DNA of 64,000 bases from Vicinamibacterales bacterium (GTDB lineage Bacteria > Acidobacteriota > Vicinamibacteria > Vicinamibacterales > JAMQPK01): assembly GCA_963784045.1 (NCBI GenBank), contig CAWAPZ010000011.1, positions 21,939 to 85,938 on the forward strand, read 5' to 3'. The translations under genes and the position numbers were made by a program. The notes below the pieces were generated by a model, which saw only the letters and a program-made list of their open reading frames with translations, ran no database searches and had not been told where the DNA came from. This document shows, piece by piece, positions 1 through 57,251 of the stretch (its first letter is position 1; every line of letters begins with the position of its first letter).

Positions 1-28
1 TTCGCTCTTCGTTTTTCGTTTTTCGTTA
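1..28. repeat. Heptamer tandem array (TTCGYTN x4, reverse complement of the AAACGAA family), cut by the window edge
   Basis: Read directly: ttcgctc ttcgttt ttcgttt ttcgtta. It is the same unit family as the arrays at 9082 and 13172/13234. It lies inside the still-open PE-domain reading frame. Confidence 0.65.
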
Positions 29-729
29 CCCGGTTCCTTACCTGTCTCCTTCCCCGATTTTTTCATTGCAGCCTTTTGAATAATATCCTCCAGCATTTTC
101 CCTGTCGCTCCGCCCTTGGCCGGCCTGTGTGATTCCCAGATTGCAGGTGTGTCTCCCGCAAGGATGTCTTCGAAATCGCCGCCACTCTTCACGCTGAGCG
201 GCGCGAATTCCGCGATGTCGACAGCGCCCGACCAGTCATCGCGATGCTTGATCAGCAGCCAGCTCCGGCCCTCGCCATACGACGGTCCTTTCGTCCGGAT
301 GAGCGCCCACGAGCCTTTCAGCTTGTAGCCGTTGAGCGTGAACTTGAGATCCCCCTTTTTCAACGCGGCGTCGAGGTCGTCCACTTGCGGCGTCCACGTG
401 CCCCGATCCCATAGCATGACGATACCCGCGCCGTAGCCTTCTGGAATCACGCCTTCGAATTCGCCATACTCGATTGGATGATCTTCGACGTGCATGGCGA
501 GCCGCTTCGTGCCTGGATCGAGCGACGGCCCCTTCGGGACGGCCCATGACAGCAGGACGCCGTTGTGCTCGAGGCGAAAATCGTAGTGAAGGTGGCTGGC
601 GAGGTGTTTCTGCACGCAGAAGAAGCGATCGGATGTCTTGGCGGCGGACTTGCGAACCGCGTCGGAGGAGCCGGCCGGTTCAGGGGTCTTCTGGAAGTTG
701 CGTTTTTGCTTGTACTTTTCTAGAGGCAT
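1..729 (-). CDS. Stand-alone DNA ligase D 3'-phosphoesterase (PE) domain protein; 3' end runs off the window
   Basis: ATG at 729. It is absent from the ORF track because there is no stop inside the window. My translation is MPLEKYKQKRNFQKTPEPAG..FCVQKHLASHLHYDFRLEHNGVLLSWAVPKGPSLDPG..EDHPIEYGEFEGVIPEGYGAG. It carries the conserved LigD-PE motifs HYDFRLE and SWAVPKGPS. Confidence 0.85.
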   Translation of the reverse strand, partial: MPLEKYKQKRNFQKTPEPAGSSDAVRKSAAKTSDRFFCVQKHLASHLHYDFRLEHNGVLLSWAVPKGPSLDPGTKRLAMHVEDHPIEYGEFEGVIPEGYGAGIVMLWDRGTWTPQVDDLDAALKKGDLKFTLNGYKLKGSWALIRTKGPSYGEGRSWLLIKHRDDWSGAVDIAEFAPLSVKSGGDFEDILAGDTPAIWESHRPAKGGATGKMLEDIIQKAAMKKSGKETGKEPGNEKRKTKSE

Positions 730-812
730 GAGGTGTAAGGAGTGCAACAGGTGGGTGTAACAGGCGCGCACCCCTTGCACCCGTCGCACCCACCGCCCCT
801 ATTGCACCTGAT

Positions 813-1154
813 TTACCAGCGTGGCTCCCGGCGTCCGCCGCCACCCCCGCCGCCGCCGCGGTTGCCGCGCTCGAAGCCGCCGCCACCGCCGCCACCGCCC
901 CCCATGGGTTTGGGCCGTGCCTCGTTTACCACCAGCGGGCGTCCTTCCATCTTGAATTCGTTCAGCTCTGAGATAGCGCGCTGTGCCTCCTCATCGCTGG
1001 CCATCTCGACGAATCCGAATCCCCGCGCGCGCCCCGTGGCCATGTCGCGCATGATCCGTGCGCTTTCCACAGTCCCGGCCCGACTGAAGAGCTCGGTGAG
1101 CTCGGTTTCGCCGGTCTGATAGGGAAGGTTTCCCACGTACAACTTGCGACCCAT
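813..1154 (-). CDS. RRM-type RNA-binding protein with a Gly-rich C-terminus
   Basis: Internal ATG at 1154 preceded by GGAG. RNP-2 is LYVGNL and RNP-1 is RGFGFVEM. The tail is poly-Gly/Arg. The upstream part of ORF 813..1232 looks non-coding. Confidence 0.9.
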   Translation of the reverse strand: MGRKLYVGNLPYQTGETELTELFSRAGTVESARIMRDMATGRARGFGFVEMASDEEAQRAISELNEFKMEGRPLVVNEARPKPMGGGGGGGGGFERGNRGGGGGGGGRREPRW

Positions 1155-1408
1155 AACGCTGACTCCTCGGCCCCCTGTGGGACCCACAAAAAAATCCCGG
1201 AACGGACCGGACGGTCCGTGCCGATCGTTCACCTCGCTGAGTTGTGTGCGGAGTGTGGAGACAGAGGCTGGGGGATCAGCTCGTTCGGCACTGCGCAGAA
1301 ACCGTCGGTCGGGCGCACGACAACTTCAGTATACGCCCCACAACGGGTTGGCGGTTCGCAGTTCGTGGTTGGTGTGAAGCTGTACTGAATTGCGACGCTA
1401 CCAACGAG

Positions 1409-1471
1409 AACCACCAACCACCAACCACCAACCACCAACCACCAATCACTAATCACTAATCACTAACCACT
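1409..1471. repeat. Heptamer tandem array: AACCACC x5, AATCACT x3, AACCACT x1
   Basis: Nine perfectly phased 7-nt units read directly. The array lies 18 nt beyond the yggX stop (yggX is on the minus strand). Confidence 0.9.
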
Positions 1472-1489
1472 ATGAATGAACCACCATCA

Positions 1490-1756
1490 CTATTTGGGCT
1501 TGTACTCCGGGGGCAGCGCGTCTGTGCCGCTGAAGAAGAAATCCTCCATCTGCTTCGCCATGAGCTGCTGGGCCTCCTTCTGCCACGGCATCAGACGGTA
1601 CTCGTTGAGGATCATCTTCATGCGGTCCTCCCACATCTTCCACGCCTGCGCCGAGACGTTGTCGTAAATACGCTTGCCCAGTTCGCCGGGCCACGGCGCT
1701 TCGTCGAGGCCGGGCAGATCCTTCTGCAACTTCGCGCAAAACACGGTTCGTGCCAT
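1490..1756 (-). CDS. yggX: Fe(2+)-trafficking / oxidative-damage protection protein YggX
   Basis: The 88-aa [47 protein letters not shown] aligns by eye along its length with E. coli YggX. Confidence 0.85.
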
Positions 1757-1802
1757 GCGGCAATCCTATCAGAAGGGCAGAGGGCCCTGTCATAATCACC
1801 CC

Positions 1803-3242
1803 ATGTCTGTCTCTTCCACCGTCGAGCGCGGGCGTGCCGGCAATTTCGAAGACAACGTCAACGCGTATTTCAATCACGCGGCCACGTTCTGCAAACACGC
1901 GCCCGGGTTGCTCGAGCAGATCAAGGTGTGCAACTCGGTGTACGCGTTTGCGTTTCCGGTCCGGCACGCGGACGGATCGATCGAAGTGGTGCACGCGTGG
2001 CGGGCGGAGCACAGCCATCACAAGCTGCCGACCAAAGGGGGCATCCGGTACAGCCCGCAGGTCGATGAGTCGGAGGTCAAGGCGCTCGCGGCGTTGATGA
2101 CGTACAAGTGCGCGCTCGTCGACGTCCCTTTTGGTGGAGCGAAAGGCGCCGTTCAAATCGACCCCGCCCGTTACACAGTAGAGCAGCTCGAGCGCATCAC
2201 GCGCCGCTATACCCACGAGCTCGATCGCAAGCAATTCATCGGCCCCGGCATCGACGTCCCTGCGCCCGATTACGGAACCGGCGAGCGCGAGATGTCGTGG
2301 ATCGCGGATACGTACAGCCAGTTGCACACCGGCGAGCTCGAGGCGCTCGCCTGCGTCACCGGCAAACCCGTCACCGAAGGCGGCATCCACGGCCGCCGTG
2401 AAGCGACCGGGCGCGGACTGATGTTCGCCTTGTCCGAGGCGTGCCGTTCGGCCGACGACATGCGCGCGCTTGGATTATCGGTCGGCCTCGACGGAAAACG
2501 GCTGGTCGTTCAGGGACTTGGCAACGTCGGATATCACACGGCGAAGTTCTGTCGCGAGCAGGGGGCGATCATCGTCGCGCTGGCCGAGCGCGAAGGCGCG
2601 ATTCACAACACGAAGGGCTTGAACGAAGACGAGGTCTTCAATTTCCGCAAGCGCACCGGCTCACTCCTCGGATTTCCCGGCGCCACGGATATCCTGCGCA
2701 GCGCCGACGCGCTCGAGCTCGAGTGCGATGTTCTGGTACCGGCGGCGCTGGAGAACGTGTTGACTTCCGAAAACGCGGCCCGCATCAAGGCCAGGATCAT
2801 CCTCGAAGGCGCAAACGGCCCGACGACACCCGAAGCAGACGACGTCTTCAGGAAAAAGGGCATCATGGTCATCCCGGATGTCTTCGCCAACGCGGGCGGC
2901 GTCACTGTTTCGTACTTCGAGTGGCTGAAAAATCTCTCGCACGTGCGGCTCGGGCGCCTGGATCGCCGCCGTCAGGCTGCGACGGAGCTGCGGATTCTGC
3001 AGGCTATCGAGGCGGCGACGGGCAAGACGTTCACCGAAACAGAGCGGCAGTCGTTCGTCAAAGTCACCGATGAGCTGGCGATCGTGAATTCGGGCCTCGA
3101 AGACACGATGATCGTGGCGTATCAGGACATTCGCGAAGCGCTCCGGGCCGAACCCAAGATGGGAGACCTCCGCACGGCCGCCTTCAAACGCGCGATCGAC
3201 AAAGTCGCTGTAGTGTACGAAGAGCTCGGCATCTTTCCGTAA
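1803..3242 (+). CDS. gdh: Glu/Leu/Phe/Val-family (glutamate) dehydrogenase
   Basis: Carries KGGIRYSP...[10 protein letters not shown] and the Rossmann motif VVQGLGNVG. Start chosen at ATG 1803 ([10 protein letters not shown]), divergent from yggX. The track ORF starts at TTG 1674. Confidence 0.9.
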
Positions 3243-3324
3243 TCCAACGCAAAGACACCAAGCCGCTGAGATTCGTTTTTGAAAGGAATCTTCGCGCCGT
3301 CGCGCCTTTGCGTTGACATGAGAA

Positions 3325-5371
3325 TTACCGCGTCAGCCGCGCAACCTGGACGCGGGCGTCGTTGAAGCACGCGCCTCCGCCCAGATCCGTCAGCGAGTCG
3401 GGCACCAGCGCGTTGCTGGTCATCTGGTTCCAGGTACTCTTGCGCCACAACCCCTTTGGCAGCGACACCGTACCCACTCGAATCGTCGCCTCAATCTTCA
3501 CGGCGCACTGCACTTCGCCCTGCTCGTTGAATATCCTGACCGGATCGTCGTTTTTCAGGCCCCGAGGGGCGGCATCATCCGGGTTCATGAGCAGCGCGAC
3601 AGCAGGCCTTGTCAGCTCGCCCATCGTGGAGCTGATCGTCCGATCGCTCGCCGGCGAAATCAACGCCAGCGGAAAACGCTCGCTCGCAGGATCGGGCTGG
3701 AACGTGTACAACCCCAGAGGCGCCTCCGCGTCCAGCGCCGGCGGGAACAAGTCGATCTTCTGATCGAACGTTCTCGGCATGACGTCGACGAACTGAATCG
3801 GCCGGAAGCCGAACGGCGGGGCCGCGCGTCCGGCCACTTCCATCTGCGCGCCGACCGTTCCCGGCAGCGTCTTGAAAACCTGCAGGAGCATGTCGAGCTC
3901 GTTATCGGGGTCGTCGCCTTCAAGCAGATCGAGCCGCCTCGCCAGCTCGCCGAAAACCTCCGGATTCGATCGCGATTCGCCCACCGCATCGATCACCGGC
4001 TGCACGAGCTGCAGGCTCAATGGCCCGTAGCCCCGCGCGAAGTCGTACGCTTCCAGGAACGTCGTAGCCGGCAGAATCACGTCGGCAAACGCAGCCGTAT
4101 CGGTCATCACTTGATCGAAGACGACGGTGAAAAGGTCTTCGCGAGCCACCCCTTGGATAACGCGCTGTTGATCGGGCATCGTCGCAACAGGATTGCAGTT
4201 GTAGACGAAGAGCACCTGTATCGGCGGATCGTCGGTACTCGAGCAGCGCGCGGCCAAGCTGGTTCATGTTGACCACCCGGGTGTCCGGCTCGCGGCCCAG
4301 CCACGGACGGGTGATGTTCCACGCCCCCGAGTTGCTCATCGAATAGCCGCCGCCACGGACCCCGAATTTTCCGGCGACCGCCGGCAGCGCGAGAATAGAC
4401 ATCGCTGCGTTGCCGCCATTGCGATTGCGCTCGAGGCCCCAACCGCATTTCAGCACGGCTGGCGACATGCTCGCGTAGTCCTCGGCGAGCCGGCGCAAAG
4501 CGGCTTCGGGGACGGCTGAGATCTCCGCGGCGCGCGCGAATGTCCACGCCGACGCCCGCTCACGCAGCCGGTCGGCACCTTTTGTGTGCTCGGCGAGAAA
4601 CTTGGTGTCGGCAAGACCGCTCTCGAAGAGATGGCGGTGGACCGCGAGGGCAATCGCCACATCGGCGCCGGGCCGCGGCGCCAGATGGAGATCGGCCTGG
4701 CGCGCCAGCGGCGTCGATCGCGGGTCGATCACGATGAGTCGCGCGCCGGATTTCTGAGCCTCGCGCACGTAGGGAACGAGGTGGATACCGGAAGTCGATG
4801 GGTTGACGCCCCAGAGAATGATGAGGCGCGCGGCGGGATAGTCCTCGTACGTGACCGAGGGCATCTTTCCGTAGAGTGCCTGAGCCGCGACGCCCGTGGG
4901 CGCCGCGCACACCGTGCGCGCAAGCCGCGATGTGCCGAACCGGTGAAAGAGGATCGCGTCGAGCGTGTCCTGTGTCAGGAGGCCGTTCGATCCGCCGTAA
5001 GAGAACGGCAGGATCGCCTCGCCACCCCACCGCTCTCGTACATCGAGCATGCGCGTGGCGATCAGCTCGATTGCCTCGTCCCACGTGGCGCGCCGGAATC
5101 GGCCCTGTCCTTTCAGCCCGGTTCGCACGCCGGGATACTGCAGGCGCGCCTCGCCGTACACGCGGTCGCCGAATTTACGAACCTTCGCACAGATGTAGCC
5201 GCCCGTCGGAGGGTTCAACGTCGAGCCGTCGATTTCCACGACCCGGCCGTTGCTGACCGTCACGGACAAACTGCACCCATCAGGACAGTCGAGCGGGCAC
5301 GCGGTGTCGACGAAATGCGGGGTCTGACCCCCTCGGGTGTCGCGGGGGTCAGACCCCTGTCGCTGGTTCAT
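3325..5371 (-). pseudogene. Molybdopterin (MopB-family) oxidoreductase, frameshifted near 4234-4240
   Basis: The N-terminal ORF 3920..5371 has an Fe-S Cys cluster (CPLDCPDGC) and MopB-like sequence up to ..VVNMNQLGRALLE. The protein then continues in another frame (ORF 3325..4257) as ..DDPPIQVLFVYNCNP.. to the C-terminal barrel domain. One extra base at ctcgagtaccgac separates the two frames. Confidence 0.8.
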
Positions 5372-5391
5372 TCATGTCAGCATAAAGCAGA

Positions 5392-6456
5392 GTGCTGAAG
5401 CTTGCATTGATTGTCCTGGCGGCGACTCTGGCCGTCGCGCCGCTGCCGCGGCACGTCGTCGAGCGCGTGTACTCGCGCGGCATGTATCCAATGGTCCAGC
5501 CGGGACTGACGGCGCTGAGCAACCGCACGTCGTTCGCGTGGTTCGATGCGATTGTGCTGGTGGCGTTGGCGGTCATCGTGGTGATGTGGGCCGTCCGCTT
5601 GCGTTCGCCGCAACGCAGAACGCGCGGCATCGGAAGAACGCTCGCCGTCCTCACCCTCGACACCATCGCGCTCGCGGCCGTTCTGTACCTGTGGTTTCTC
5701 GGTGCGTGGGGCTTGAACTACCAGCGGCAGCCCTTGCGCGAGCAACTCGACTTTCGAGAAGAGCAGGTCACCCCTGACGCGCTTCGTGCGCTTGCGAACC
5801 GCGTCGTCCACGCCTTGAATGATCTCCATCCACAGGCGCATCACCAGGGTTGGGCCGAATTGCCGGCGATTCGTGACACACTCGAACCGGCGTTCGTGCG
5901 TGCGCAGCGCGATCTGGCGATGGCATGGACAGCCCGCGCGGGCCGGCCGAAGCCGACGCTCTTCAACTTTTACTTTACGCGGGTCGCGATTGACGGCATG
6001 ACGGCGCCGTTTGTGCTCGAGACGCTCGCGAATCAGACGCTTCTTCCGTTCGAGCGGGCCGCGACCGTCGCGCACGAATGGAGTCATCTCGCGGGCTATG
6101 CCGACGAATCCGAGGCGAACTTCGTGGGATGGCTGGTGTGCATGCGAGGGGATGTGCCCACGCAGTACAGCGGTTGGCTCGCACTATATGGGTCGGTCGC
6201 CGGCGCATTGCCGGCGTCCGAGCGCGAAGAGATCTCTCGACGACTAGCCCCCGGACCGCGCGCCGATCTGCGCGCCATATTTGATCGCATCAGACAGCAC
6301 GCGATTCCCACAGCAAGCCGAGCCGGCTACGCGCTTTACGATCGGTTTTTGAAAGCGAACAGGGTGGAGGCGGGAATACGAAGTTATGGCGAGGTGGTGC
6401 GCTTGATGCTCGGGACGCGGTTCACTGACGACGGCGTGCCGGTGGTGCGCAAATAA
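5392..6456 (+). CDS. DUF3810-family membrane protein with an HExxH motif (putative Zn metalloprotease)
   Basis: N-terminal TM segments, then ATVAHEWSHLAGYADESEANFVGWLVC, which matches the DUF3810 HExxH...EANF signature as I recall it. Confidence 0.75.
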   Translation: MLKLALIVLAATLAVAPLPRHVVERVYSRGMYPMVQPGLTALSNRTSFAWFDAIVLVALAVIVVMWAVRLRSPQRRTRGIGRTLAVLTLDTIALAAVLYLWFLGAWGLNYQRQPLREQLDFREEQVTPDALRALANRVVHALNDLHPQAHHQGWAELPAIRDTLEPAFVRAQRDLAMAWTARAGRPKPTLFNFYFTRVAIDGMTAPFVLETLANQTLLPFERAATVAHEWSHLAGYADESEANFVGWLVCMRGDVPTQYSGWLALYGSVAGALPASEREEISRRLAPGPRADLRAIFDRIRQHAIPTASRAGYALYDRFLKANRVEAGIRSYGEVVRLMLGTRFTDDGVPVVRK

Positions 6457-6590
6457 GAATTGGAAGATTGACCATTGAAGATTGTCGGAATGTTGCCAGA
6501 TTGTCGATTGACGATGCCAAATTCTGAAAATCCCTCAATCTGCAATCCGACAACAATCCGCGAATCTTCCAATCTGCGATCGTGCAATTC
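6457..6590. repeat. Heptamer-phased imperfect palindrome (..ATTG units on the left, CAATC units on the right)
   Basis: Left block: gaattgg aagattg accattg aagattg .. gattgtc gattgac. Right block: ctcaatc tgcaatc .. gaatctt ccaatct gcgatcg tgcaatt. It starts 1 nt after the TAA at 6454-6456 and fills the gap between convergent genes. Confidence 0.75.
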
Positions 6591-6604
6591 GAGACCGGCG
6601 TCCG

Positions 6605-6895
6605 CTATGAAGGCAGTTGCACGTCGTCGAGCGGCAGTGTCTGCTCCGTGTTCGTGTCGAGCGACGCTGGCTGCGCCGGCGCGGCAGCTGGGGCGGGTCG
6701 GGGTACGCTGCGGCTGGGCGCAGAGGCACGAGTGGAGCTGCTGGGCGGTGTTGCGCGCTTCGCGCTGCGTTTCGTGATCCGCTTCGCGCTGCTCTTGGCC
6801 GATCGCTTCGCAGTCATTTTCCGTGATGCGGTTTTTGTCGAGGCCTTGCGTGACTTGGCGGCAGTCTTTGCCGCCCTCCGGCGTTTCTTGGCCAT
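6605..6895 (-). CDS. Lys/Ala-rich basic protein (histone H1-like)
   Basis: ATG at 6895 with GGAGG 6 nt upstream. Sequence is MAKKRRRAAKTAAKSRKASTKTASRKMTAKRSAKSSAKRITKRSAKR. Function is inferred from composition only. Confidence 0.55.
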   Translation of the reverse strand: MAKKRRRAAKTAAKSRKASTKTASRKMTAKRSAKSSAKRITKRSAKRATPPSSSTRASAPSRSVPRPAPAAAPAQPASLDTNTEQTLPLDDVQLPS

Positions 6896-6951
6896 ACGCG
6901 CTCCTCCAGTTGAAATGGGCGCGCGTATTCTATCTGATAAGCTAATCGCAC

Positions 6952-7560
6952 GTGCGGCAGATCCTCCCGCTGGTTCTCTCCTTTCTGCTCGTCGTCGCCG
7001 CCGCCCCCGCACTGGCCGATCAGGCCGGCGCCGACATACCCGCTGACGACCGCCGCATGCCGTTCGAGAAGGGCACCGTGGAAATCAGCGTCCTTGGCGG
7101 TGCAACGATTCCCACGTCGCTCTTCCGCTCGAACGCCGACCATCAATTGGCGATGGCGTCGTTCGTGATCGGGCGTGTGATGGCCGGCAGCCGCGGGAAA
7201 GGCAGCCTGGAGCTTCTTGTTGACGTGACGCCCTTCTTCCAGGTCCGGCAGCCTGACTTGGTTCGCGGCTGGTCGACGGCGCCGCTCTTTGTCAGATGGA
7301 ACTTTCCAGCGCTGGGTGCGGCTCGAATATACGGAGAAGTGAGCGGGAGCCTGCTCTTTACAACGGCGCCGGTGCCTGTCCGCACGACGACCTTTAACTT
7401 CATGGATCAGGCGGGCTTCGGTATCCGCCTCGAGGAAAGCCACGGGCGCGCGTGGCTTCTCGGATATCGTTTTCAACACATCTCCAATGGCGGACGGGTG
7501 ACGCCAAACCCTGGGGCAAACTTCAATTTCCTCTATCTCGGCATCAGCTTTCTTCGCTGA
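6952..7560 (+). CDS. Acyloxyacyl hydrolase / lipid A 3-O-deacylase (PagL-like) outer-membrane protein
   Basis: Signal peptide ..AAAPALADQ and a beta-barrel-like sequence ending YRFQHISNGGRVTPNPGANFNFLYLGISF. The H-x-S-N catalytic motif is typical of the PagL family. Confidence 0.75.
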   Translation: MRQILPLVLSFLLVVAAAPALADQAGADIPADDRRMPFEKGTVEISVLGGATIPTSLFRSNADHQLAMASFVIGRVMAGSRGKGSLELLVDVTPFFQVRQPDLVRGWSTAPLFVRWNFPALGAARIYGEVSGSLLFTTAPVPVRTTTFNFMDQAGFGIRLEESHGRAWLLGYRFQHISNGGRVTPNPGANFNFLYLGISFLR

Positions 7561-7774
7561 CGCAAACTGTTGGTTTTCGCCGATCGTCCTACAACCCTGT
7601 CGATAGGGCCGCGGATAACGAAAGGGCGCGGACTCCTTCGGGCCGACTGCCTTGCTCAGGCGCCAGAGTCTGCCCCACAGTCTGAACACCGTTGTCCCCT
7701 TCATGATTGAACCGCCACACGAATGTAGGAGTCGAGGCGCAAGGGTCACAACGGGCTGACATAGAACTATCGGA

Positions 7775-7960
7775 ATGCTGAGGAAATTGCGGATTTCACA
7801 TGCGATGTGGGTATGCGAACTTGGTACGGCGATTGCTGCTTACGCCGTCGTGAAGAAAAGGCACCCCGATCTTTCCCGTGCGGTTGCGCCGGCGTGTGCA
7901 ATCACCTCTCTAGTGCTGCTACTTTTGCACCCCGACAGGCACTCATACCTTCCTAACTAA
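7775..7960 (+). CDS. Small hypothetical protein (doubtful)
   Basis: A 61-aa ORF in a visibly less GC-rich stretch, with no recognisable motif. It may simply be part of a long garR leader. Confidence 0.2.
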   Translation: MLRKLRISHAMWVCELGTAIAAYAVVKKRHPDLSRAVAPACAITSLVLLLLHPDRHSYLPN

Positions 7961-47546: not shown

Positions 47547-50441
47547 ATGGCGACCCCAAGCATCCCGTCGAGAGGTCTGATTTTCGCGGCACTGATGGCA
47601 TTCGCCCTGCCCGCATGGGCGCAGGGCGTTGGCGGTATTGGCGGTACGGTGATGGATTCGTCTGGCGCAGTGCTACCGGGCGTCACTCTCACTCTGACGA
47701 GCGCCCAGGGAGGCACCCTGGGCGCCAACCGGGAGGTCGTGAGTGACGAGCGCGGCAATTACCAGTTCGTTCGTGTTGTCCCAGGCACGTACGTCGTTCG
47801 CGGCACGATGCAGGGGTTCCGCACCGTCGAGCAGCGAAACATCGTCGTGAATGCCGACGCGATTGCGCGCGCCGATCTCACGCTGCCGCTCGGGCAGTTG
47901 GAAGAAGGCATTGTCGTGTCGGGTGAGGCGCCGCTGCTCGATACGACATCGGCATTGAAACAGACCGTGCTGAGCCAGGACACTCTCCAGGCTCTGCCGA
48001 ACCGTATCGACGTCTGGTCGATCACGCGCGTCATTCCCAGCGTCGTTGCGAGCAAAGTTGACGTCGGCGGGTCCGAATCATTCCAGCAGTCCGGCATCAC
48101 GGTGCACGGGACGAGCAACGAAAACGGCTACTACATCGACGGCATGAACGTGTCGAGCACGCAAAGCAGCGGCAGCATCGCCACCTTCTACCTCGATCCG
48201 TACGCGTTCGAAGAGGCGAACTTCCGCGCGGGCAATGCTCCGGCCGAAGCTTCGACCGGCGGACTTGTCTTCAACATGATCAGCCGGACCGGTACCAACC
48301 AGTTCCACGCCGGCACCGTGTTCAACGGCACCAACCACACGCTCGGGTCCAACAACGTCGACGACGCGCTGGCTGCGCAGCTGCTGCGAAACGTGCCCGA
48401 GTCGGTAAAGCAGGCGAGACCCGATCTGAAGCCGACGGCAGACATCCGCTATCTTTTCGACTACGGCGGCTGGCTGGCCGGGCCGCTGGTGAAGGACAAA
48501 CTGTGGTGGTCGACCTCGTTCCACCATTCACAGATCCTCCAGTATCTGGTCGGCAGCTATAACCCCGACGGCACGCCTGTGCCCGACGACAATATGTTGT
48601 GGAACTTCTCGAACAAGCTGTCGTGGCAGGCCGGCCAGAACAGTCAGCTCTCTCACTTCTACATTCTGCAATACAAGAAAAACGGTCACCGAGCGAACAC
48701 TGGCGTGGCGTTTTCCGAAACCGGCGCGACGGTGGCCAACACGAAATATCCGCAGCTGCACCAGGTGAAGTGGACATCGACGCGATCGGCGAGGATGGTC
48801 TATGACGTGTCCGGCAGCGTGAATCGCGTGGACGACTACCAGCCATGGCCGATCGAGGGTGACTCGCCGACGTGCTCGGCGAAGGTAGACAGAGAAGGGT
48901 GCACGGACGGCTTGATCGCCGGCTTCGACCAGGTGAGCAACACCGCGCTGCGCATTCTGCCGACGTATCGTGACCTGCCGAACACGCGTGTATTCGCGCA
49001 GGGCAGCGTCAGCTACTTCACGACCGCTCATGACATCAAGGCCGGCTACCAGTTCGACTATGCCTGGAACGAAGTGTTGTACTTCTCCTCGTCCGGCATG
49101 CGCGCGGTCTACCGTTCCGGAGTGCCCGATTCCGTGAACACCTACAACACGCCGGCACGCTCGATTCCCGAGAACATCCAGCAGGGTCTGTACATCCAGG
49201 ATAAGTGGCGTCCGAACCGCAAGCTGACCATCAATGGGGGCTTGCGCCTGGACACGAACCGGGGTTGGACCCGCGCGCTATGCCAGGACGCGACGCCGTT
49301 CATTGCCGCGCAATGCTACGACAAGATTTCCGGCGTGCCCGACTGGAAATCCGTAAGCCCGCGCTTCTCGGCCGTGTACGACATCGCGGGTGACGGGCGC
49401 ACCGCGCTCAAGTTCTCTGCCAATCGCTACATTATTCCGGTCGGCAGCAGCATCCTCGATCGGATCAACCCGATTTTCCTTGCGAGTGACACGCGGGCGT
49501 GGCGGGCGCAGTCCGCGTGCGCATCAGTGAACAACGTCGGCTGCGACTTGAACGGCGACCTCCTTCCTCAAATCAACGAGCTCGGGGCGTCGAGCGGGTT
49601 CAACCTCGGCAACTTCAACCGCTATGAGGCGGGCTACGATTGGCCGTGGGCGCGCGAATTTTCCGCCGAAATTCAGCGTCAATTGCCTCTGAACCTGGTC
49701 ATCAGCGCCGGGTATACGCGGCGTGAGAAGCTTGGGAACCTGGGATCGCGAAACGTCGCGGTGCCTGAGAGCAGTTACACCAAGCTGACAGTTACCGAGG
49801 TGAACAGCGGCCAGGTTGTCGACGTCTATAACCAGGACCCGGCGCTTCGCGGCAGACAGGATTTCGTCTGGACCAACATGTCGGAGCTCGACAGCACCTA
49901 CAACGGCACAGACATCTCGCTCGATAAGCGGATGAGCAACGGCTGGATGATGACCGGCGGCATCAGCATCGGCGAGACCATCGGCTGGGTCGGCAGCACC
50001 GACCTCAACAATCCGAACTCCAAAGAGTTCAATCGCGGCATCGTCGGCAATGACACACCGTTCTCGTTCCGCCTATCGGGGCTCTACGACCTTCCGTACG
50101 CCATTCAGATGAGCGGAACATTCCAGCATCAAAAAGGATTTCCGGAGCTGACACAAGTCTCCGTCGGGAACAACACGGTGGCGTTGACGCAGGGCACGAC
50201 GAACGTCACCGTCGAGCCGCGCGGCACGACGCGTCTCCCTGCGCTGAATCAGCTCGACATGAGCTTCCGGAAAGCGTTTCAGGCCGGCGGAACGAGGTAT
50301 CAGCCCCGCATCGACCTGTACAACCTCCTGAACACCGCCACCGTCATCTCGCGCGTGACCACACTTGGGGGGAGCTACGGCGCAGTGAGCAACATCCAGC
50401 GGGGACGTCTCATCAAGTTCGGCATGGCCGTCGATTGGTAG
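47547..50441 (+). CDS. TonB-dependent receptor with an N-terminal carboxypeptidase-regulatory-like domain
   Basis: ATG 47547 follows AAGGAG. Carries a signal peptide and GTVMDSSGAVLPGVTLTLTS..ERGNYQFVRVVPGTYVV, with a large beta-barrel ending ..LIKFGMAVDW. Confidence 0.85.
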   Translation: MATPSIPSRGLIFAALMAFALPAWAQGVGGIGGTVMDSSGAVLPGVTLTLTSAQGGTLGANREVVSDERGNYQFVRVVPGTYVVRGTMQGFRTVEQRNIVVNADAIARADLTLPLGQLEEGIVVSGEAPLLDTTSALKQTVLSQDTLQALPNRIDVWSITRVIPSVVASKVDVGGSESFQQSGITVHGTSNENGYYIDGMNVSSTQSSGSIATFYLDPYAFEEANFRAGNAPAEASTGGLVFNMISRTGTNQFHAGTVFNGTNHTLGSNNVDDALAAQLLRNVPESVKQARPDLKPTADIRYLFDYGGWLAGPLVKDKLWWSTSFHHSQILQYLVGSYNPDGTPVPDDNMLWNFSNKLSWQAGQNSQLSHFYILQYKKNGHRANTGVAFSETGATVANTKYPQLHQVKWTSTRSARMVYDVSGSVNRVDDYQPWPIEGDSPTCSAKVDREGCTDGLIAGFDQVSNTALRILPTYRDLPNTRVFAQGSVSYFTTAHDIKAGYQFDYAWNEVLYFSSSGMRAVYRSGVPDSVNTYNTPARSIPENIQQGLYIQDKWRPNRKLTINGGLRLDTNRGWTRALCQDATPFIAAQCYDKISGVPDWKSVSPRFSAVYDIAGDGRTALKFSANRYIIPVGSSILDRINPIFLASDTRAWRAQSACASVNNVGCDLNGDLLPQINELGASSGFNLGNFNRYEAGYDWPWAREFSAEIQRQLPLNLVISAGYTRREKLGNLGSRNVAVPESSYTKLTVTEVNSGQVVDVYNQDPALRGRQDFVWTNMSELDSTYNGTDISLDKRMSNGWMMTGGISIGETIGWVGSTDLNNPNSKEFNRGIVGNDTPFSFRLSGLYDLPYAIQMSGTFQHQKGFPELTQVSVGNNTVALTQGTTNVTVEPRGTTRLPALNQLDMSFRKAFQAGGTRYQPRIDLYNLLNTATVISRVTTLGGSYGAVSNIQRGRLIKFGMAVDW

Positions 50442-50601
50442 GTGGTTGGTGGTTGGTGGTAGCTGACGGCCGACCTGAAGGTCGGCACTACGAGAACGGG
50501 TCGGATGGAGCCCCACGTAGTGCCGACCTTCAGGTCGGCCACCAACCCAGCCGGTAGGTGGCCGGTGGTTGCACAGCCTGCAACCACCAACCACCGACCG
50601 C
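50442..50601. repeat. Composite nested palindromic element: heptamer arms flanking an inverted pair of REP-like 25-mers
   Basis: Outer arms are gtggttg x3 (50442-50462) and caaccac-type x3 (50581-50601). Inner arms are a perfect inverted repeat: ggccgacctgaaggtcggcactacg (50468-50492) and cgtagtgccgaccttcaggtcggcc (50516-50540). Each inner arm itself contains the hairpin gccgacc-tgaa-ggtcggc. Confidence 0.9.
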
Positions 50602-50603: not shown

Positions 50604-51528
50604 TTAGTGTTTCTTGCCGAGCTTGACCGTCAGATAGGTCACCGACTTGCCTGGTTCGACCTCCCAGAAATGCGGCACGCCCGCCGGCGCCGACGCGATG
50701 TCGCCGGCCGCCAGCTTCTGGCGCGTCACATTGCCCACGATCTCGCCGCCTCGCACCTCTCCGTCAGCGGCTTCCTTGCCGCCTTCCAGTTTGTCGCCGT
50801 AGCGGATGGTCACTTCGCCATCGAGGACAAAATACAGAATCCGCCCAGTTCTTGTGCAGTTCTGCGCTGGCCGAGCTCTTCGCGCGATGGCTGATGTTCT
50901 GGAACTGATGATCTCCGCGGTGCACGGACGGGAACTTTATCGTCTCGCCTTTTTTTAATGTTTCGACGAACGCCTTCAGGTCCGCAGCTTTGTAGTGGAC
51001 GAACTGCGTGGGTGTCGAAGTTGAGGTGTAGAGATTCGGCTGCTTCAGGACCTTGACGGTCATGTAGGTCACCGTCTTGCCAGGCTCCACTTCCCACCAG
51101 TGAGGCACACCTGCGGCAGAAGATGCGATGTCGCCGGCGGAGAGCCGAACGACCTTTGCGCCGTTAATCTTCCCGCCGCCGAATTCACCGGAGCCGGGAG
51201 TGCGCTCGGTGCCGCTCTCGAGCGTGCCGCCGGTGTGGTGCAGCACCTCGCCGTCGACGATGTAGTAGAGATCGGCATAGTTGTTGTGCATCTCGGGTCC
51301 CGCCGTGCTCTTCGCGCGGAAGTTGAAGCTCTGGAACTCGTGATCGCCGCGGTTGAGGCGGTTGAACTTGATCTGTCCCCCGCCTTTCACCGTGTTGTTG
51401 AGTGCCATGATGTCGGCGGCGGGGTAGTAGGCGAACTTCATCGGTGTGACGGGCGGTGCCTGAGGGGCCTGAGCCGTGGCCATCGCCACGCAGAGAAGGA
51501 GACCAGAAGCGACGACCAGAATTTTCAT
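50604..51528 (-). pseudogene. Secreted two-domain cupin-like protein, frameshifted near 50839-50840
   Basis: ATG 51528 follows GGAGG, with signal peptide MKILVVASGLLLCVAMATAQA. Domain 1 is ..NNYADLYYIVDGEVL..AGVPHWWEVEPGKTVTYMTVKV. Domain 2 breaks at ..HKNWAD and resumes in ORF 50604..50813 as (L)YFVLDGEVTIRYGD..AGVPHFWEVEPGKSVTYLTVKL. There is one extra T in gcggattctgtat. Confidence 0.75.
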
Positions 51529-51553
51529 GCGTACCTCCGCGCGCACTATAGGA

Positions 51554-53653
51554 CTACTTCAGGAGTTTTCGCAAATCCACGCCGTTCGACCCCAGGAGCG
51601 GCGCCCAGAGATCCCCGACCTTGGCAAGCCGATCGGGCAGCGTACGGATCGTGAAATCGCGGGGATCGATCCCCTCGTCCACCTCCTTCCAGGTCAGCGG
51701 CGTCGACGCCCCGGCATACTCGCTCGCGCGCGCGCTGTAGGCGCACGCGAGCGACTTGCCTTCGATGTTCTGGAGGTAGTCGACGTACACCTTCCGGCCG
51801 CGCGCCCTCACGGTGCGCATCACGGTGGCGACCTTCGGGTGCTGTTCCGCGACGACAGTCGCCACGATCTGACAGAAGATTTGCCCGGCCTCATAGGGTG
51901 TGCCTTCGCGGAGCGGAATGAAAATGTGCAACCCGCTGGCGCCGGATGTCTTCGGGTAGCCGGTCACCGTCAACTTTTCCAGCGCATCGCGCGTCCACCG
52001 CGCGACGTCGAGCACGGCGGCGAACGTCACGCCTGGCATTGGGTCGAGATCGATCGCGCACTGATCCGCAAAGTGCGGCGACGCCACGCGCGAAAACCAG
52101 GGATCCTGCGAGATGGCCGCAAGTTGCGTCATGTACAGCAGGGTGACGAGGTCGCCGCCGATCGGCCGGCTCGCCACGCTGTCGCCCGGTACGTTCGCGA
52201 CTCTGACGCCGGGGGGAATCTTCTCGGGGGCCTTGTGCTGGTAGAACGGCTCGCCCTCAATGCCGTTCGGGTACCGCTTCATGATCAGCGGGCGATGATC
52301 CACGACGGGGAGGATGTAAGGCGCCACGCGAACGTAGTAACGCATCAGATCGCCCTTGGTAATCTTCAGCTTCGGCCAGAACACCTTTCGAAGATTGCTC
52401 ACCTCGAGTGTGTGTCCATCGGGCAGCCGCAACGTCCCAGAGCCGGGCCCGCGCTCGAGTTCCTCGAGCTGCTGAACGAGCGCCTCGAACGCGCCGGCCG
52501 ACCTGGCGGACCTGAAGGTCGGCACTACGTTTTCTGGCGTGATGGTCGGCAATACGTTTTCCTTAGTCCCCGTCGCCGTCGCACGCCTTGGACTCTTCTG
52601 ACTCTCACGACTCTGACGACTCTTCGGACTCCCACGACCCTTCGGACTCTCAGGCCTCTTCGGCACCTCTTTTTTCACGTCCTCCGGTTTCACATCGTCC
52701 CTCATGCCGAGATAAATAGGATGGCGAAGCAGCCCATCGTCGGTCCATTCGGTGAATTTGAGCTGCGCTACCAAAAAGGGTTTCGTCCAATGCGGCCGCT
52801 CGTTGGTCCGGGGCCGCGTCGTGAACGGCGACGCCGCAACTTCCAGCGGCTTCAGCAGTCGAATGACGCGCTCGAGCTCGCGCTGATTGAACCCGCTGCC
52901 CGTGTGGCCGGCGTACTTCAGTCCGCCTCCTTCGTAGTAACCCAGCAGCAGCGCGCCGAAGGGCCGATCAGCCGTGCGCGAGTCGGTCCATCCGCCGACA
53001 ACGAACTCCTGCTCCTGGACGATCTTGATCTTCCTCCAGTCGCGGGTACGCTTGCCGCTGTGATACACCGAGTGCGCCTCTTTGGCGATGAGCCCTTCCC
53101 ATCCGTGGCCGAGCGCGTGCTGAAAGAGCTCGCGCGCATCGCCGGGGACGACGTCGCTCAGCCGCAAAATTGGCGAGCCTGTGTTACGAAACACGCGCTC
53201 CAGACGGCCTCGCCGCTCATCCAGGGGCGCCGGCCGAAGGTCCTCGTCGCGGTCTCGCAGGATGTCGAACGCAATCAGCGCAACACGTCCGGCAGCAGCC
53301 GCCCTGTTCGACTCTGTCAGGTGTATGCGGTTCTGCAGCCGCTGAAAACCCGCAGGTTCCCCGTTCTCGTCGAGCGCGACGATCTCGCCGTCGAGCACGA
53401 CAGGACCGTGCAGTTTTTTCGCGAAGCGTGACAAGGCGGCGACGAGGTCGGGAAATTGCGCGGTTTTGTCGTTGCCGAGCCGCGACCAGATCTGCACCGG
53501 CGCGCGGCGTCCCGGAACAACTTCCACGAGCGCGCGGATGCCGTCGTACTTGGGTTCGTAGACCAGTCCAGCGGATTGGAGCGGCGCTGTTTCGAGGGTG
53601 GCCAGCATCGGGCGCACCGAGTGCATGTCGCCGCGCCACTTCGCCGTCGGCAT
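51554..53653 (-). CDS. ligD: DNA ligase D (ATP-dependent ligase domain + primase-polymerase domain; no PE domain)
   Basis: N-terminal ligase with motif I (EPKYDGIR), a low-complexity linker, then a LigD-Pol domain (..LEVSNLRKVFWP..TKGDLMRYY..YPNGIEGEPFYQH..DLDP..SGASGLHIF..). 699 aa. Confidence 0.9.
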   Translation of the reverse strand: MPTAKWRGDMHSVRPMLATLETAPLQSAGLVYEPKYDGIRALVEVVPGRRAPVQIWSRLGNDKTAQFPDLVAALSRFAKKLHGPVVLDGEIVALDENGEPAGFQRLQNRIHLTESNRAAAAGRVALIAFDILRDRDEDLRPAPLDERRGRLERVFRNTGSPILRLSDVVPGDARELFQHALGHGWEGLIAKEAHSVYHSGKRTRDWRKIKIVQEQEFVVGGWTDSRTADRPFGALLLGYYEGGGLKYAGHTGSGFNQRELERVIRLLKPLEVAASPFTTRPRTNERPHWTKPFLVAQLKFTEWTDDGLLRHPIYLGMRDDVKPEDVKKEVPKRPESPKGRGSPKSRQSRESQKSPRRATATGTKENVLPTITPENVVPTFRSARSAGAFEALVQQLEELERGPGSGTLRLPDGHTLEVSNLRKVFWPKLKITKGDLMRYYVRVAPYILPVVDHRPLIMKRYPNGIEGEPFYQHKAPEKIPPGVRVANVPGDSVASRPIGGDLVTLLYMTQLAAISQDPWFSRVASPHFADQCAIDLDPMPGVTFAAVLDVARWTRDALEKLTVTGYPKTSGASGLHIFIPLREGTPYEAGQIFCQIVATVVAEQHPKVATVMRTVRARGRKVYVDYLQNIEGKSLACAYSARASEYAGASTPLTWKEVDEGIDPRDFTIRTLPDRLAKVGDLWAPLLGSNGVDLRKLLK
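52508..52671. repeat. In-frame repeats inside the LigD linker: two 27-nt REP-like units plus a 9-nt tandem array (about 9 copies)
   Basis: ggacctgaaggtcggcactacg (52508-52529) and tgatggtcggcaatacgttttc (52540-52561) are spaced 27 nt apart and encode ENVLPTITP/ENVVPTFRS. The 9-mers from 52591 to 52671 are gactcttct gactctcac gactctgac gactcttcg gactcccac gacccttcg gactctcag gcctcttcg gcacctctt. Confidence 0.85.
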
Positions 53654-55263: not shown

Positions 55264-55543
55264 AAGCTCCTTGGTTCCGAGAGATCGATCGACCATGGCC
55301 ACACTTCTCCGCACGCCCGGCAGTGGCACCACCGTACGACGCGGCTGCTCGAGAGACCCTGCACTTCCCGAGTCTTTCCGCAACTCGGGCAGATCAATGG
55401 ATGAGGCAAATCGCTCGCGCGCCGTCCGCCGCGAGGTATCGTCCGGCGGTCCAGTTGATTCGGGTTGCGGCGATCGCTGATTGCGTCCATGCTTCGCAGA
55501 CATATTATTCCGGCGGACTGCGGAATAGAAGCGGCGACTCCAC

Positions 55544-56896
55544 ATGGATCAATTCGAACGGGAAGTGGTTTCCGATCTCGACGAGCAGACCGACGACCGC
55601 GCCGAGGCGCGCGGCAAGATCCCGCTGCACGTGCGCATCCTATTGGGGCTGGCCGCCGGAGCGGTGCTCGGCAGCGCCGCGCGCGAGATTCTTGGTCCCG
55701 ATTCGCCGTTGCTCGCGTCGGCAATCAGACACGTCGCTGAGCCGGTAGGCCAGCTGTTTCTGCGCTCGCTGCTGATGACGGTGGTCCCGCTCGTCGTCTC
55801 GTCGCTGGTCGTCGGTGTGGCGGGCATCGGCGACGTGCGCCGCCTGGGACGCGTGGGCGTGCGCACGGTGCTGTTCTGCCTTGCCATTTCACTGGTTTCG
55901 GTCTTTCTGGGCATCTTCCTTGCCAACACGGTGCGTCCGGGACTGCGGCTCGATCCTGCGACCCGCGATCTCCTGATGGCGGAATTCGCCGCCCAGTCCA
56001 AACAGGTGGCTGCCAGCCCCAGCGCCGCAAGCGAGTCGCCCGTGATGTCGTTTGTACGCTCGCTCGTCCCCGCGAACCCGCTCGAGTCGATGGCCCGCTC
56101 GACACCTGACATGATCGGCATCATGTTTTTCTCGATTGTGTTCGGCGCAGCGCTCACGCTCGTCTCTCGCGAGAGTGCGGCGCCCGTCATCGCGGTGCTC
56201 GACGGGGTCTTCAAAGTAGTGGCGAAGATCATCGACATCGTCATGAAGATCGCGCCTGTGGGCGTCGCGTGTCTGCTGTTTGCCATGACCGCGCGTTTCG
56301 GGTTCGGCTTTCTCGTCAGCCTCGGCTGGTATGTCGTGACGGTGCTCGGCGGATTGGCGTTCCACATGTTCGTGGTCTACGGAGCCGCGCTCAAATTCGG
56401 GGCCCGGGTCTCTCCCGTCGAGTTCTTCCGGCGTGCGCGCACGGTGATGCTCACCGCGTTTTCGACGAGCTCGTCGAACGCGACACTGCCAACCGCCCTG
56501 CGCGTCTCGGAATCGAACCTCGGCGTGCCGCGGGAAATCGGCGCGTTCGTGCTGACGGTTGGCGCGACGGCCAATCAGAATGGGACGGCATTGTACGAAG
56601 GGGTGACGGTCCTTTTTCTGGCGCAGCTGGCGGGCGTGGATCTCACGCTCGCGCAACAGCTGATGATCGTCTACCTGGCGGTGCTCGGCAGTATCGGCAC
56701 GGCCGGCGTGCCGGCCGGCTCGCTGCCATTCGTCGTCGGCGTGCTCGCCATGGTCGGCATTCCGACACAGCTCATCGCGATCATCATCGGCGTCGATCGG
56801 CTGCTCGACATGACGCGAACGGTCGTGAACGTGATGGGCGATCTGACCGCGACGGTATACGTCGCGAAGAAGGAAGGAGCCACGCTGCAGATCTGA
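55544..56896 (+). CDS. Dicarboxylate/amino acid:cation symporter (DAACS, GltP/DctA-like)
   Basis: 450 aa, polytopic, with TAFSTSSSNATLP and ..VGATANQNGTALYEG.., typical SDF-family motifs. Confidence 0.85.
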   Translation: MDQFEREVVSDLDEQTDDRAEARGKIPLHVRILLGLAAGAVLGSAAREILGPDSPLLASAIRHVAEPVGQLFLRSLLMTVVPLVVSSLVVGVAGIGDVRRLGRVGVRTVLFCLAISLVSVFLGIFLANTVRPGLRLDPATRDLLMAEFAAQSKQVAASPSAASESPVMSFVRSLVPANPLESMARSTPDMIGIMFFSIVFGAALTLVSRESAAPVIAVLDGVFKVVAKIIDIVMKIAPVGVACLLFAMTARFGFGFLVSLGWYVVTVLGGLAFHMFVVYGAALKFGARVSPVEFFRRARTVMLTAFSTSSSNATLPTALRVSESNLGVPREIGAFVLTVGATANQNGTALYEGVTVLFLAQLAGVDLTLAQQLMIVYLAVLGSIGTAGVPAGSLPFVVGVLAMVGIPTQLIAIIIGVDRLLDMTRTVVNVMGDLTATVYVAKKEGATLQI

Positions 56897-57025
56897 ATCT
56901 GATAACTAGAATCTGAAAACTAGGATCTGAGTCTTCAGCGTAGATTCTAGACTTCAGTTTCCAAGATTCTAGATTTCTGCGTAAGTAAGAGTTTCCAGAT
57001 TCTAGATTTCTGCGTAAGTAAGAAG
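56897..57025. repeat. AT-rich tandem repeats (7/14-nt units, then a ~34-nt tandem duplication) between the symporter stop and tRNA-His
   Basis: gaatctgataacta gaatctgaaaacta ggatctg.., then tttccaagattctagatttctgcgtaagtaagag followed by tttccagattctagatttctgcgtaagtaagaag. It starts on the base after the TGA at 56894-56896. Confidence 0.8.
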
Positions 57026-57101
57026 TGGGGTGAGTGACGGGGATTGAACCCGCGACTACCGGCGCCACAGGCCGGTGCTCTACCACTGAGCTACACTCAC
57101 C
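57026..57101 (-). tRNA. tRNA-His (anticodon GTG) with encoded G-1 and CCA
   Basis: Reverse complement G GTGAGTG TA GCTC AGTGGTA GAGC A CCGGC CTGTGGC GCCGG TAGTC GCGGG TTCAATC CCCGT CACTCAC C CCA. Confidence 0.9.
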
Positions 57102-57137
57102 ACAAGAGCGACAATCCCTGATTGTACAACAGAGAAC

Positions 57138-57159
57138 TGCGGAGGCGGGGGATCGAACC
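57138..57159 (-). other. Isolated tRNA 3'-end fragment (T-loop + acceptor 3' strand)
   Basis: Reverse complement is GG TTCGATC CCCCG CCTCCGC A. No matching D or anticodon arms lie upstream. It abuts the heptamer array. Confidence 0.4.
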
Positions 57160-57251
57160 TGAAATCTAAAATCTATAATCTGAAATCTATGATCTGAAAT
57201 CTGGAATCTGGTTCGGCAGATTCCAGATTCCAGATCTTAGATTTTAGTTCC
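57154..57251. repeat. Opposed heptamer blocks (AAATCTR x8 / AGATTYY x5) forming a long hairpin candidate
   Basis: Left block: gaacctg aaatcta aaatcta taatctg aaatcta tgatctg aaatctg gaatctg. Centre: gttcggc. Right block: agattcc agattcc agatctt agatttt agttcct. It ends 8 nt from the fdxA stop. Confidence 0.9.

Follow-up and report, generated by a model that had tools for sequence, protein, structure and literature searches.

Tandem 7-nt repeat arrays of locus-specific sequence, in part paired as predicted gene-end hairpins, in a Vicinamibacterales chromosome

Tandem repeats of 7-nt units have been described from several bacterial lineages, and heptanucleotides have been cited as the most abundant long simple-sequence repeats (SSRs) in most genomes, the proposed reason being that the length of DNA contacted by the polymerase favours heptanucleotide slippage (Mrazek et al. 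2007, as cited in PMC4679880 and PMC4692102). Cyanobacteria are cited as carrying several families of tandem heptamers, the short tandemly repeated repetitive (STRR) sequences (Mazel 1990, cited in PMC4692102), and Chloroflexus carries (GATAGRA)n (PMC6749651). In Xanthomonas, about 185 intergenic sites hold repeats of the GGGAATC type, 70-75 of them (70 of 186) as inverted pairs that converge and could fold into stem-loops (Rehm et al. 2015, PMC4692102); these repeats are transcribed and keep their position between species while varying in length and sequence, and comparable paired inverted arrays are rare in Nostoc, where the unit is GGGGAYT (PMC4692102). Direct repeats of TAACTGA occur in Beggiatoaceae, Cyanobacteria and Bacteroidetes, mostly just upstream of start codons (MacGregor 2015, PMC4679880). 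Our literature search found no paper describing heptamer arrays in Acidobacteria. Here we describe arrays of tandem 7-nt units in a 64,000-nt stretch of a Vicinamibacterales (Acidobacteriota) chromosome, hereafter the window. A first-pass annotation made from the sequence alone had held these arrays to be unlike known elements, a view contradicted by the published heptanucleotide SSRs, STRR sequences and inverted heptamer pairs of Xanthomonas (PMC4692102, PMC4679880). They are a known kind of repeat in a new lineage, and each single feature has a published precedent. We think it probable that they are slippage-driven heptanucleotide SSRs of the STRR and Xanthomonas kind, of which the paired form has been retained as hairpins at gene ends.

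The window, which has a GC content of about 62%, is a Vicinamibacterales chromosome segment: its GlcD is 98% identical to that of a Vicinamibacterales metagenome-assembled genome, and a 21-kb locus of that genome (L001; compared loci are numbered with the prefix L) is syntenic with the window at about 94% DNA identity. The tandem 7-nt tracts proposed by the first-pass annotation (Table 1) proved to be real. Using a lag scan (at least 3 copies, 85% identity), we recovered 9 period-7 tracts against 0.5 in dinucleotide shuffles, or 7 against 0.0 among tracts of at least 4 copies, and each of the periods 5, 6 and 8-13 yielded 0-2 tracts. Lag 7 was the best lag at every proposed tract (shuffle p <= 0.007) except the right half of one of them (6530-6590), where lags 7 and 8 are mixed (p = 0.03). 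Tandem Repeats Finder likewise returned period-7 arrays at nearly all of the tracts, together with period-14 and period-33 derivatives at 56895-57023, and the tracts of the window do form, as had been claimed, a family with a common period and locus-specific units.

In pooled intergenic DNA, self-match was raised at lags 7 and 14. The periodicity extends to relatives. We examined a related-locus set comprising the window and the 71 of 80 related loci that allowed gene calling (1.41 Mb, of which our own calls make 89% coding). Intergenic arrays of at least 2.8 copies peaked at period 7 (73 arrays), with 3, 12, 26, 25, 0 and 1 arrays at periods 5, 6, 8, 9, 10 and 11, respectively, and 9 arrays at period 14. 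Period 7 is a sharp mode with a shoulder at 8 and 9 and not a fixed rule in the clade; the earlier statement that the period does not change thus stands within the window and fails among relatives, some of whose arrays have periods of 6, 8 or 9. Illumina (MEGAHIT, SPAdes) assemblies contain the arrays and so do Nanopore assemblies, and an assembly artefact was rejected. No arrays were found in the non-acidobacterial loci L071-L080, and their distribution is patchy within the order; judged from these comparisons, heptamer arrays appear to be a lineage trait of part of the Vicinamibacterales.

In predicted structure the arrays take two forms: inverted pairs, modelled as imperfect hairpins of 30-150 nt, and unpaired arrays, modelled as unstructured. 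The first-pass annotation had suggested that opposed blocks could fold into long imperfect hairpins between convergent genes, and folding agrees, with z between -3.3 and -7.2 at the four paired loci: 13165-13272 (dG -31.5, z -3.3), 6457-6600 (dG -47.7, z -4.6), 50436-50580 (dG -86.8, z -6.4, with a doublet of a REP-like 25-mer as its core) and 57150-57256 on the minus strand (dG -41.2, z -7.2). The unpaired arrays at 1409-1471, at 9082-9116 and in the tRNA spacers gave z about 0. Over all loci, a reverse-complement partner lay within 150 nt of 23% of period-7 and 50% of period-8 arrays, compared with 0-15% in controls that used reversed or complement-only units. In relatives, arrays of period 8 or 9 likewise form inverted pairs built in the manner of the heptamer hairpins, such as CAGGAGAT/TCTCCTGA and GGTGCGTG/CGCACCCA.

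We infer that the paired form is retained because it is a hairpin, and the junction downstream of the DUF3810 gene provides the strongest argument for this. We collected further orthologous loci from metagenomes, which together with the window provided 33 distinct delimitable spacers running from the DUF3810 stop to a conserved convergent open reading frame (ORF), with DUF3810 proteins 55-95% identical. These spacers folded with z < -3 in 24 cases and with z < -2 in 29 (median -4.3), and lag 7 was the best lag in 27 of 32 left arms. The units themselves have been replaced repeatedly, with about nine families at this one junction (GAAGATT/CAATCTT, GGGGTAA/CCCCTTG, GGGCAGA/TCTGCCC, GAGCAAA, GGGAAGA, GGTTCC with period 6, AAGCCCA, TAAGGGC and CATGGTC), and both arms of the hairpin change together across DUF3810 lineages. 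Comparison of the two strands of the DUF3810 hairpins, by minimum free energy and G-U counts, gave no consistent direction of asymmetry (18 vs 19).

Proximity to stop codons, which the first-pass annotation had taken as a hallmark of the arrays, held up as an enrichment and not as a strict link. All of the stops it had named are present (6454, 9079, 10504, 13169, 13266, 50439, 50604, 56894 and 57259), although the ORF behind the stop at 50604 (50604-50813, 69 aa) had no Pfam match and is an uncertain gene call; the tract beside the stop at 6454 abuts a second, convergent stop at 6605 as well. Of the arrays flanked by one or more stop codons, 50% had a stop no more than 8 nt away, compared with 23% under random placement in the same spacer, and in co-directional spacers the median distance is 8 nt from array to stop vs 31.5 nt from array to following start. 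The arrays thus have a real, roughly two-fold tendency to lie near stop codons, which is not a defining property, since arrays also occur between tRNA genes, in divergent promoter spacers and in one 5′ leader. Two tracts required correction: the one at 1-28 has the period claimed for it and is not intergenic, and the one at 1409-1471 is real and ends 18 nt from the yggX-like stop at 1490. At 50436 and 56895 of the window the stop codon lies inside the repeat unit. Arrays that start with a stop or contain one in their unit (TAAGGGG, TGAGGGG, ATCTGA) also occur in L087, L091, L101 and L002 downstream of DUF3810, and as 7 is not divisible by 3, a run of three of these units brings a stop into every reading frame.

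Comparison with L001 points to rapid turnover. Identity between the two is 89.9% at 6457-6604, 86.9% at 10507-10567, 66% at 13172-13265 and 49% at 9082-9118, against 87.8% at 2981 four-fold degenerate sites; because array identities of 49-90% bracket the four-fold value in this way, array sequence is unconstrained, and turnover at two arrays exceeds the neutral rate. L001 lacks the 9082 array and has in its place a short hairpin, CGAACG-N6-CGTTCG, and a T-run; the 10507 array has the same length with its unit-type boundary shifted by one unit; and the 13172 hairpin has the same unit family with a different copy number and loop. Such alignments show that arrays are created, resized and homogenised one unit at a time. 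In more distant relatives, the same spacers contain other units, other periods, GC-rich hairpins or almost nothing. Soil metagenome contigs over 8800-13600, sought for polymorphism of plus or minus 7 nt, were short and diverged and did not span the arrays.

The units are drawn from a restricted vocabulary. As the first-pass annotation had noted, unit families recur tens of kilobases apart: the AAACGAA family is found at 1-28, 9083 and 13175/13234, and the AACCACC family at 1409 and 50436/50581. Identical canonical units at different loci formed 32 pairs, compared with 5.4 expected from composition-preserving unit shuffles; AATC/GATT, CCAA/TTGG and TGAA cores and runs of AA/TT are enriched, and ACA, CAC and ATG are depleted. 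AATCTRR doublets are shared by non-orthologous loci (56895-57251 of the window and 4180-4264 of L003), with similarity ending at the repeat units.

On the reading we favour, the arrays would grow by replication slippage, and the symmetry of paired arms would be kept by template switching in quasi-palindromes, by selection for pairing, or by both. The paired form would be retained because a 3′-end hairpin is of use, whether by blocking read-through in both directions or by shielding mRNA 3′ ends as REP elements do, and unpaired arrays and arrays in promoter spacers would be largely by-products of the same mutational process, with the preference for 7 nt reflecting a general bacterial bias (Mrazek et al. 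2007) and not a locus-specific code. A role of the paired form as a gene-end hairpin, in termination or 3′-end protection, is plausible from the comparative data, and the earlier suggestion of 3′-untranslated-region or terminator structures finds support at one convergent junction, that of DUF3810. A number of observations weigh against a gene-end function. An exact look-up of the window's GlcD protein for public gene calls had no match. By our own codon-model gene calls, which were checked with Pfam and mis-call some small genes and spacer types (spacers labelled divergent in L001 and L007 are not divergent), arrays are similarly frequent in co-directional (35/549, 6.4%), convergent (15/144, 10.4%) and divergent spacers (9/157, 5.7%). 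In L041, L047 and L058, arrays including inverted pairs occupy promoter spacers that truly are divergent, a setting in which a terminator would be meaningless. Consensus intrinsic terminators in 1-20000 numbered 15, vs 16.4 in shuffles, and most hairpins have no U-tract, U-rich 3′ arms being found only at 13172-13268. No compensatory pairs could be counted in the GAAGATT family, whose seven sequences are too similar, and metatranscriptome contigs were too thin to resolve arrays or show ends at hairpins. No hairpin is essential, because that of the DUF3810 junction is lost in L121, L122 and L124 and the glcD/glcE spacer is down to 13-19 nt in L002 and L003; partial loss of the DUF3810 hairpin is seen in L085 and L116 (apex and one-arm deletions). 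Lastly, the excess of identical-unit pairs and the enriched cores amount to a restricted vocabulary for which pure slippage starting from random seeds does not account.

Several of these facts are shared by a neutral account, in which arrays and inverted pairs are functionless or selfish debris of slippage and template switching that persists by renewing itself. Their sequence evolves at or above the synonymous rate, they appear in all spacer types at similar frequency and with no strand bias, and they can be deleted in part or be missing altogether; self-renewal by slippage and template switching may even be an alternative explanation for retention at the DUF3810 junction. We nonetheless regard this account as doubtful, as 24-29 of 33 deeply diverged lineages have kept a heptamer hairpin at that convergent junction, as arrays are found in only about 6-10% of spacers, and as non-functional spacers of 100-150 nt are expected to be lost by deletion from compact genomes such as these (89% coding). 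We consider it similarly unlikely, if anything slightly more so, that the paired arrays constitute a distinct Vicinamibacterales class of gene-end element, 'slippery-stem' hairpins of tandem 6-9-nt units selected at convergent and 3′ junctions as bidirectional terminators or insulators. Their sequence would drift by concerted evolution, with the 7-nt register and the vocabulary (phased AA/TT, AATC and CCAA cores) set by a stem-reading protein or by a lineage-specific property of replication or repair; the phylum in question may be one without obvious canonical terminators.

The remaining accounts invoke a specific partner. The first-pass annotation had proposed that arrays are multivalent platforms for proteins that bind single-stranded RNA, for instance the window's two RRM proteins, the heptamer being one binding register. 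Both RRM genes are real by Pfam, the array in the yggX-to-RRM spacer is an unstructured (GGUGGUU)9, the leader of the RRM gene is seen in metatranscriptome contigs, and the unit vocabulary is restricted. The proposal found no support in the comparison, in that the units include dozens of unrelated sequences, many arrays are locked in predicted duplex hairpins, array sequence is not conserved at orthologous sites, arrays also occur in divergent spacers, and the link to RRM proteins reduces to one array upstream of one RRM gene. Moreover, neither composition nor orientation of the arrays on the sense strand shows a consistent bias (AT skew positive in 18, negative in 16), which argues against a single sequence-specific RNA-binding protein such as RRM, and we consider such platforms very improbable. 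Non-autonomous mobile elements of the REPIN or MITE type, with inverted doublets copied into new spacers by a trans-acting transposase, would account for the same unit families at non-orthologous loci within and between genomes (AATCTRR; AAACGAA at three window loci), for the REPIN-like doublet architecture and for the genuine REP-like 25-mer embedded in one array. This is highly unlikely for arrays that have no conserved ends, fixed length or target-site duplication, whose similarity is limited to the repeat units without reaching the loops and which differ in copy number by single units; a Pfam scan of 50 ORFs, part of those in the window, showed no transposase or RAYT-like family. A role at the DNA level, in which arrays would act as cruciforms, be bound by proteins or adjust promoters through spacers of variable length (phase variation), has in its favour the inverted pairs in divergent promoter spacers, AA/TT runs phased every 7 bp, and the 10511 array, which contains the -35-like hexamer of the top promoter-like site within 1-20000. 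L001 does not share the spacing of that site, the majority of arrays are at 3′ ends and a candidate binding protein is not known, so that we give this role hardly any credence.

Transcript data bear on one spacer in particular. Metatranscriptome contigs cover the genes flanking arrays and the leader of the RRM gene as far as about 1369. A single contig of a related strain, in which a different spacer of 55 nt takes the place of the array, connects the end of yggX with the RRM leader. Contigs of 37 nt consisting purely of (AACCACC)n and matching 1409-1445 were present in soil and rhizosphere metatranscriptomes (X26, X27) at a word depth of up to 49; the locus of origin of these 37-mers is not assignable.

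The genes that flank arrays are ordinary chromosomal genes, as judged by a Pfam scan of 50 window ORFs covering part of the window. Rfam matches at or above the gathering score in the window were the 4 tRNA genes only. Coordinates of the arrays and of the genes in question are collected in Table 1.

Table 1. Repeat tracts of the window with their surroundings, period-8/-9 inverted pairs of relatives, and relevant genes. TRF, Tandem Repeats Finder.
Feature	Coordinates	TRF period-7 array	Surroundings	Remarks
TTCGYTN x4 (AAACGAA family)	1-28 (window edge)	8-27	inside 3′ end of minus-strand ORF (candidate LigD 3′-phosphoesterase-like, read from sequence alone); stop beyond window edge	lag 7 = 0.86; encodes the ORF's K/E/R-rich tail
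AACCACC x5, AATCACT x3, AACCACT, unpaired	1409-1471	1409-1470	18 nt after yggX-like stop (gene 1490-1756, minus), 176 nt before RRM gene start (813-1232, minus)	no predicted structure, dG 0; (GGUGGUU)n on transcribed strand
Imperfect hairpin, 148 nt; NNNATTG left arm, CAATCNN right arm	6457-6604	6463-6484	fills whole convergent spacer between DUF3810 stop 6454-6456 (plus) and conserved ORF 6605-7012 (minus)	
NAAACGA x5, unpaired	9082-9116	9083-9115	fills convergent spacer between 3-hydroxyisobutyrate dehydrogenase-like stop 9079-9081 and redoxin stop 9119-9121	z 0.07
TTCACCG x3, TTAACGG, CAAACAG x2	10507-10555	10511-10552	between PEGA gene stop and glcF	imperfect inverted array centred on CCGTTAACGG; overlaps best promoter-like match TTAACG-16-TATAAT (10532-10559)
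Paired AAWCGAA (13172-13199) + TTTCGNT (13234-13268), central loop	13172-13268	13175-13199; 13234-13267	fills convergent glcE/glcD spacer	hairpin with 3′ arm U-rich on both strands
CACTTTC-type x5	35305-35339	35306-35340	tRNA-Lys/tRNA-Arg spacer (both minus)	unstructured, z -0.7
CACTTTC-type, about 3 units	35436-35463		spacer between two tRNA-Arg genes	lag 7 = 0.57, p 0.007
Composite hairpin; outer arms GGTGGTT x3.6 (50436-50462) + AACCACC x2.7 (50581-50601)	50436-50601	50436-50460; 50581-50599	left arm overlaps TAG stop of outer-membrane-protein gene	core of two inverted copies of 25-nt REP-like GGCCGACCTGAAGGTCGGCACTACG (50468-50492, 50516-50540)
AATCTGA-family tract; 14-nt unit GAATCTGAAAACTA x2.6 + 33-nt unit x2	56895-57025		between SDF gene stop and tRNA-His; TGA stop 56894-56896 of SDF gene is part of first repeat unit	z -2.3
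Paired AAATCTR x7 + AGATTYY x5	57154-57251	57159-57210; 57217-57235	between ferredoxin stop (57259) and tRNA-His	31-nt arms, 90% complementary, 6-nt loop
Period-8/-9 inverted pairs	L003 3409-3481; L005 6008-6071; L022 1163-1239; L039 4218-4380; L062 9121-9208; L063 3264-3320; L043 7768-7846; L050 1487-1598			in relatives
Flanking genes				DUF3810, 3-hydroxyisobutyrate dehydrogenase-like, redoxin, PEGA-domain protein, glcF, glcE, glcD
Flanking genes, continued				CarboxypepD_reg/beta-barrel outer-membrane protein, sodium:dicarboxylate symporter (SDF), ferredoxin, LigD, yggX-like Fe(2+)-trafficking protein
RRM_1 protein genes	813-1232 (minus); 61326-61961 (plus)			Pfam

Some further features of the window concern the same genes. 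A third copy of GGCCGACCTGAAGGTCGGCACTACG (52505-52529) lies inside the LigD ORF (51554-53653, minus), between its ligase and primase-polymerase (Prim-Pol) domains, and adjoins coding repeats of 9, 18 and 27 nt at 52586-52663. Both RRM genes have internal coding repeats, a (CCG)n tract at 835-899 in the one at 813-1232 and two copies of a 27-nt repeat (AAAGAGGAAGAAGTCAAGGAA...) at 61902-61955 in the one at 61326-61961. The small ORF at 50604-50813 shares a 97-nt stretch (75% identity, 51049-51145) with the cupin-like gene at 50764-51546 and looks like a partial paralogue of it. Upstream of the GTG start of glcF, a TATAAT box stands at a distance of about 8-10 nt (10554-10568) and is kept at orthologous sites in L002-L006, even in spacers of only 23-41 nt; this conservation so close to the start suggests that the glcF mRNA may be leaderless or have a very short leader. 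The spacer between glcF and glcE (11861-11908) measures 48 nt in the window, compared with 224 nt (L005) to about 1.8 kb in relatives and about 1.44 kb in L001 (L001-L007 compared, where delimitable). Since these relatives carry more sequence there, the window appears to have lost sequence, possibly a gene, between glcF and glcE. Elsewhere in the window, a molybdopterin oxidoreductase gene (3325-5371, minus) is split into two overlapping ORFs, one at 3920-5371 with Molybdop_Fe4S4 and Molybdopterin domains and one at 3325-4257 with the end of Molybdopterin and Molydop_binding, which could be a frameshift, a pseudogene or an assembly error. A KdgT-like ORF at 17229-17855 covers only profile positions 107-305 of 305 and is followed by an apparent spacer of 472 nt (region 17229-18327); a frameshift or a wrong gene call may affect its N-terminal part.

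Knowledge of bacterial heptanucleotide repeats goes back to 1990, and in statistical terms they are the favoured long SSR. The Vicinamibacterales are a good system in which to compare them, having many genomes, complete ones included, and many unit families per genome. At least one junction keeps hairpin and period over deep divergence while its sequence is replaced, which makes both a role in termination or RNA stability and the origin of the period open to test. Short-read assembly and gene calling are both liable to be misled by the arrays, the latter because of their overlap with stop codons and C-terminal tails.

Set against other repeat classes, the arrays differ, as the first-pass annotation rightly held, from CRISPR, MITEs and classical REP sequences. 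CRISPR arrays have repeats of 23-47 nt with unique spacers of similar length, whereas the units here are 7 nt long and contiguous, and MITEs, which are defined elements in multiple near-identical copies with terminal inverted repeats and a target-site duplication, are rejected because the arrays have no shared ends and no similarity outside the repeat units. REP sequences are fixed palindromes of 20-40 nt with a genome-wide consensus and an associated RAYT transposase, and serve in mRNA 3′-end protection and termination. The arrays share with REP, BIME and REPIN elements their intergenic, 3′-end position, their ability to form hairpins and their frequent occurrence as inverted doublets, but their stems are built of tandem 7-nt units with locus-specific sequence, and only the embedded 25-mer at 50468, 50516 and 52505 is REP-like. 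With bidirectional intrinsic terminators they have in common a hairpin that fills a convergent spacer, and 13172-13268 even has, read on either strand, an A-rich arm, then a hairpin, then a U-rich arm; in contrast to intrinsic terminators, in which a U-tract follows a short GC-rich stem, the stems in the window are far longer, most are without a U-tract, and consensus terminators are not enriched.

The closer parallels are with other heptamers. The TAACTGA repeats are likewise short intergenic heptamer arrays, for which a post-transcriptional role has been proposed, yet they consist of a single unit, lie mostly before start codons and are almost never inverted, unlike the window arrays. Heptamers of the G-quadruplex type (GGGNNNN, with at least 4 G3 tracts) do not describe the window, whose units are without GGG, the arrays of GGGGTAA and GGGCAGA being found only in relatives. 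Through those G-rich units at the DUF3810 junction, together with intergenic placement and inverted pairing, the arrays resemble the repeats of Xanthomonas and Nostoc; Xanthomonas, however, has one dominant G-rich unit with G-quadruplex potential, whereas the window has at least five unrelated families, most of which do not contain G3. They share with the STRR sequences of cyanobacteria the amplification and dispersal of several heptamer families in the intergenic DNA of one genome, and the unit TTGGTCC of one relative is close to TTGGTCA, the unit of STRR2. They are not STRR sequences in the strict sense, the host being a member of the Vicinamibacterales, and phylum, GC content and unit sequences differ. 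Finally, the arrays show what defines prokaryotic heptanucleotide long SSRs, with at least 3 head-to-tail 7-nt copies above chance, an intergenic excess of period 7, and variation in copy number and sequence between relatives. They share with these the dominance of a non-triplet period of 7, intergenic placement, length that varies between relatives and patchy occurrence among lineages, and differ from them in having many unit families within 64 kb and a large share of inverted pairs.

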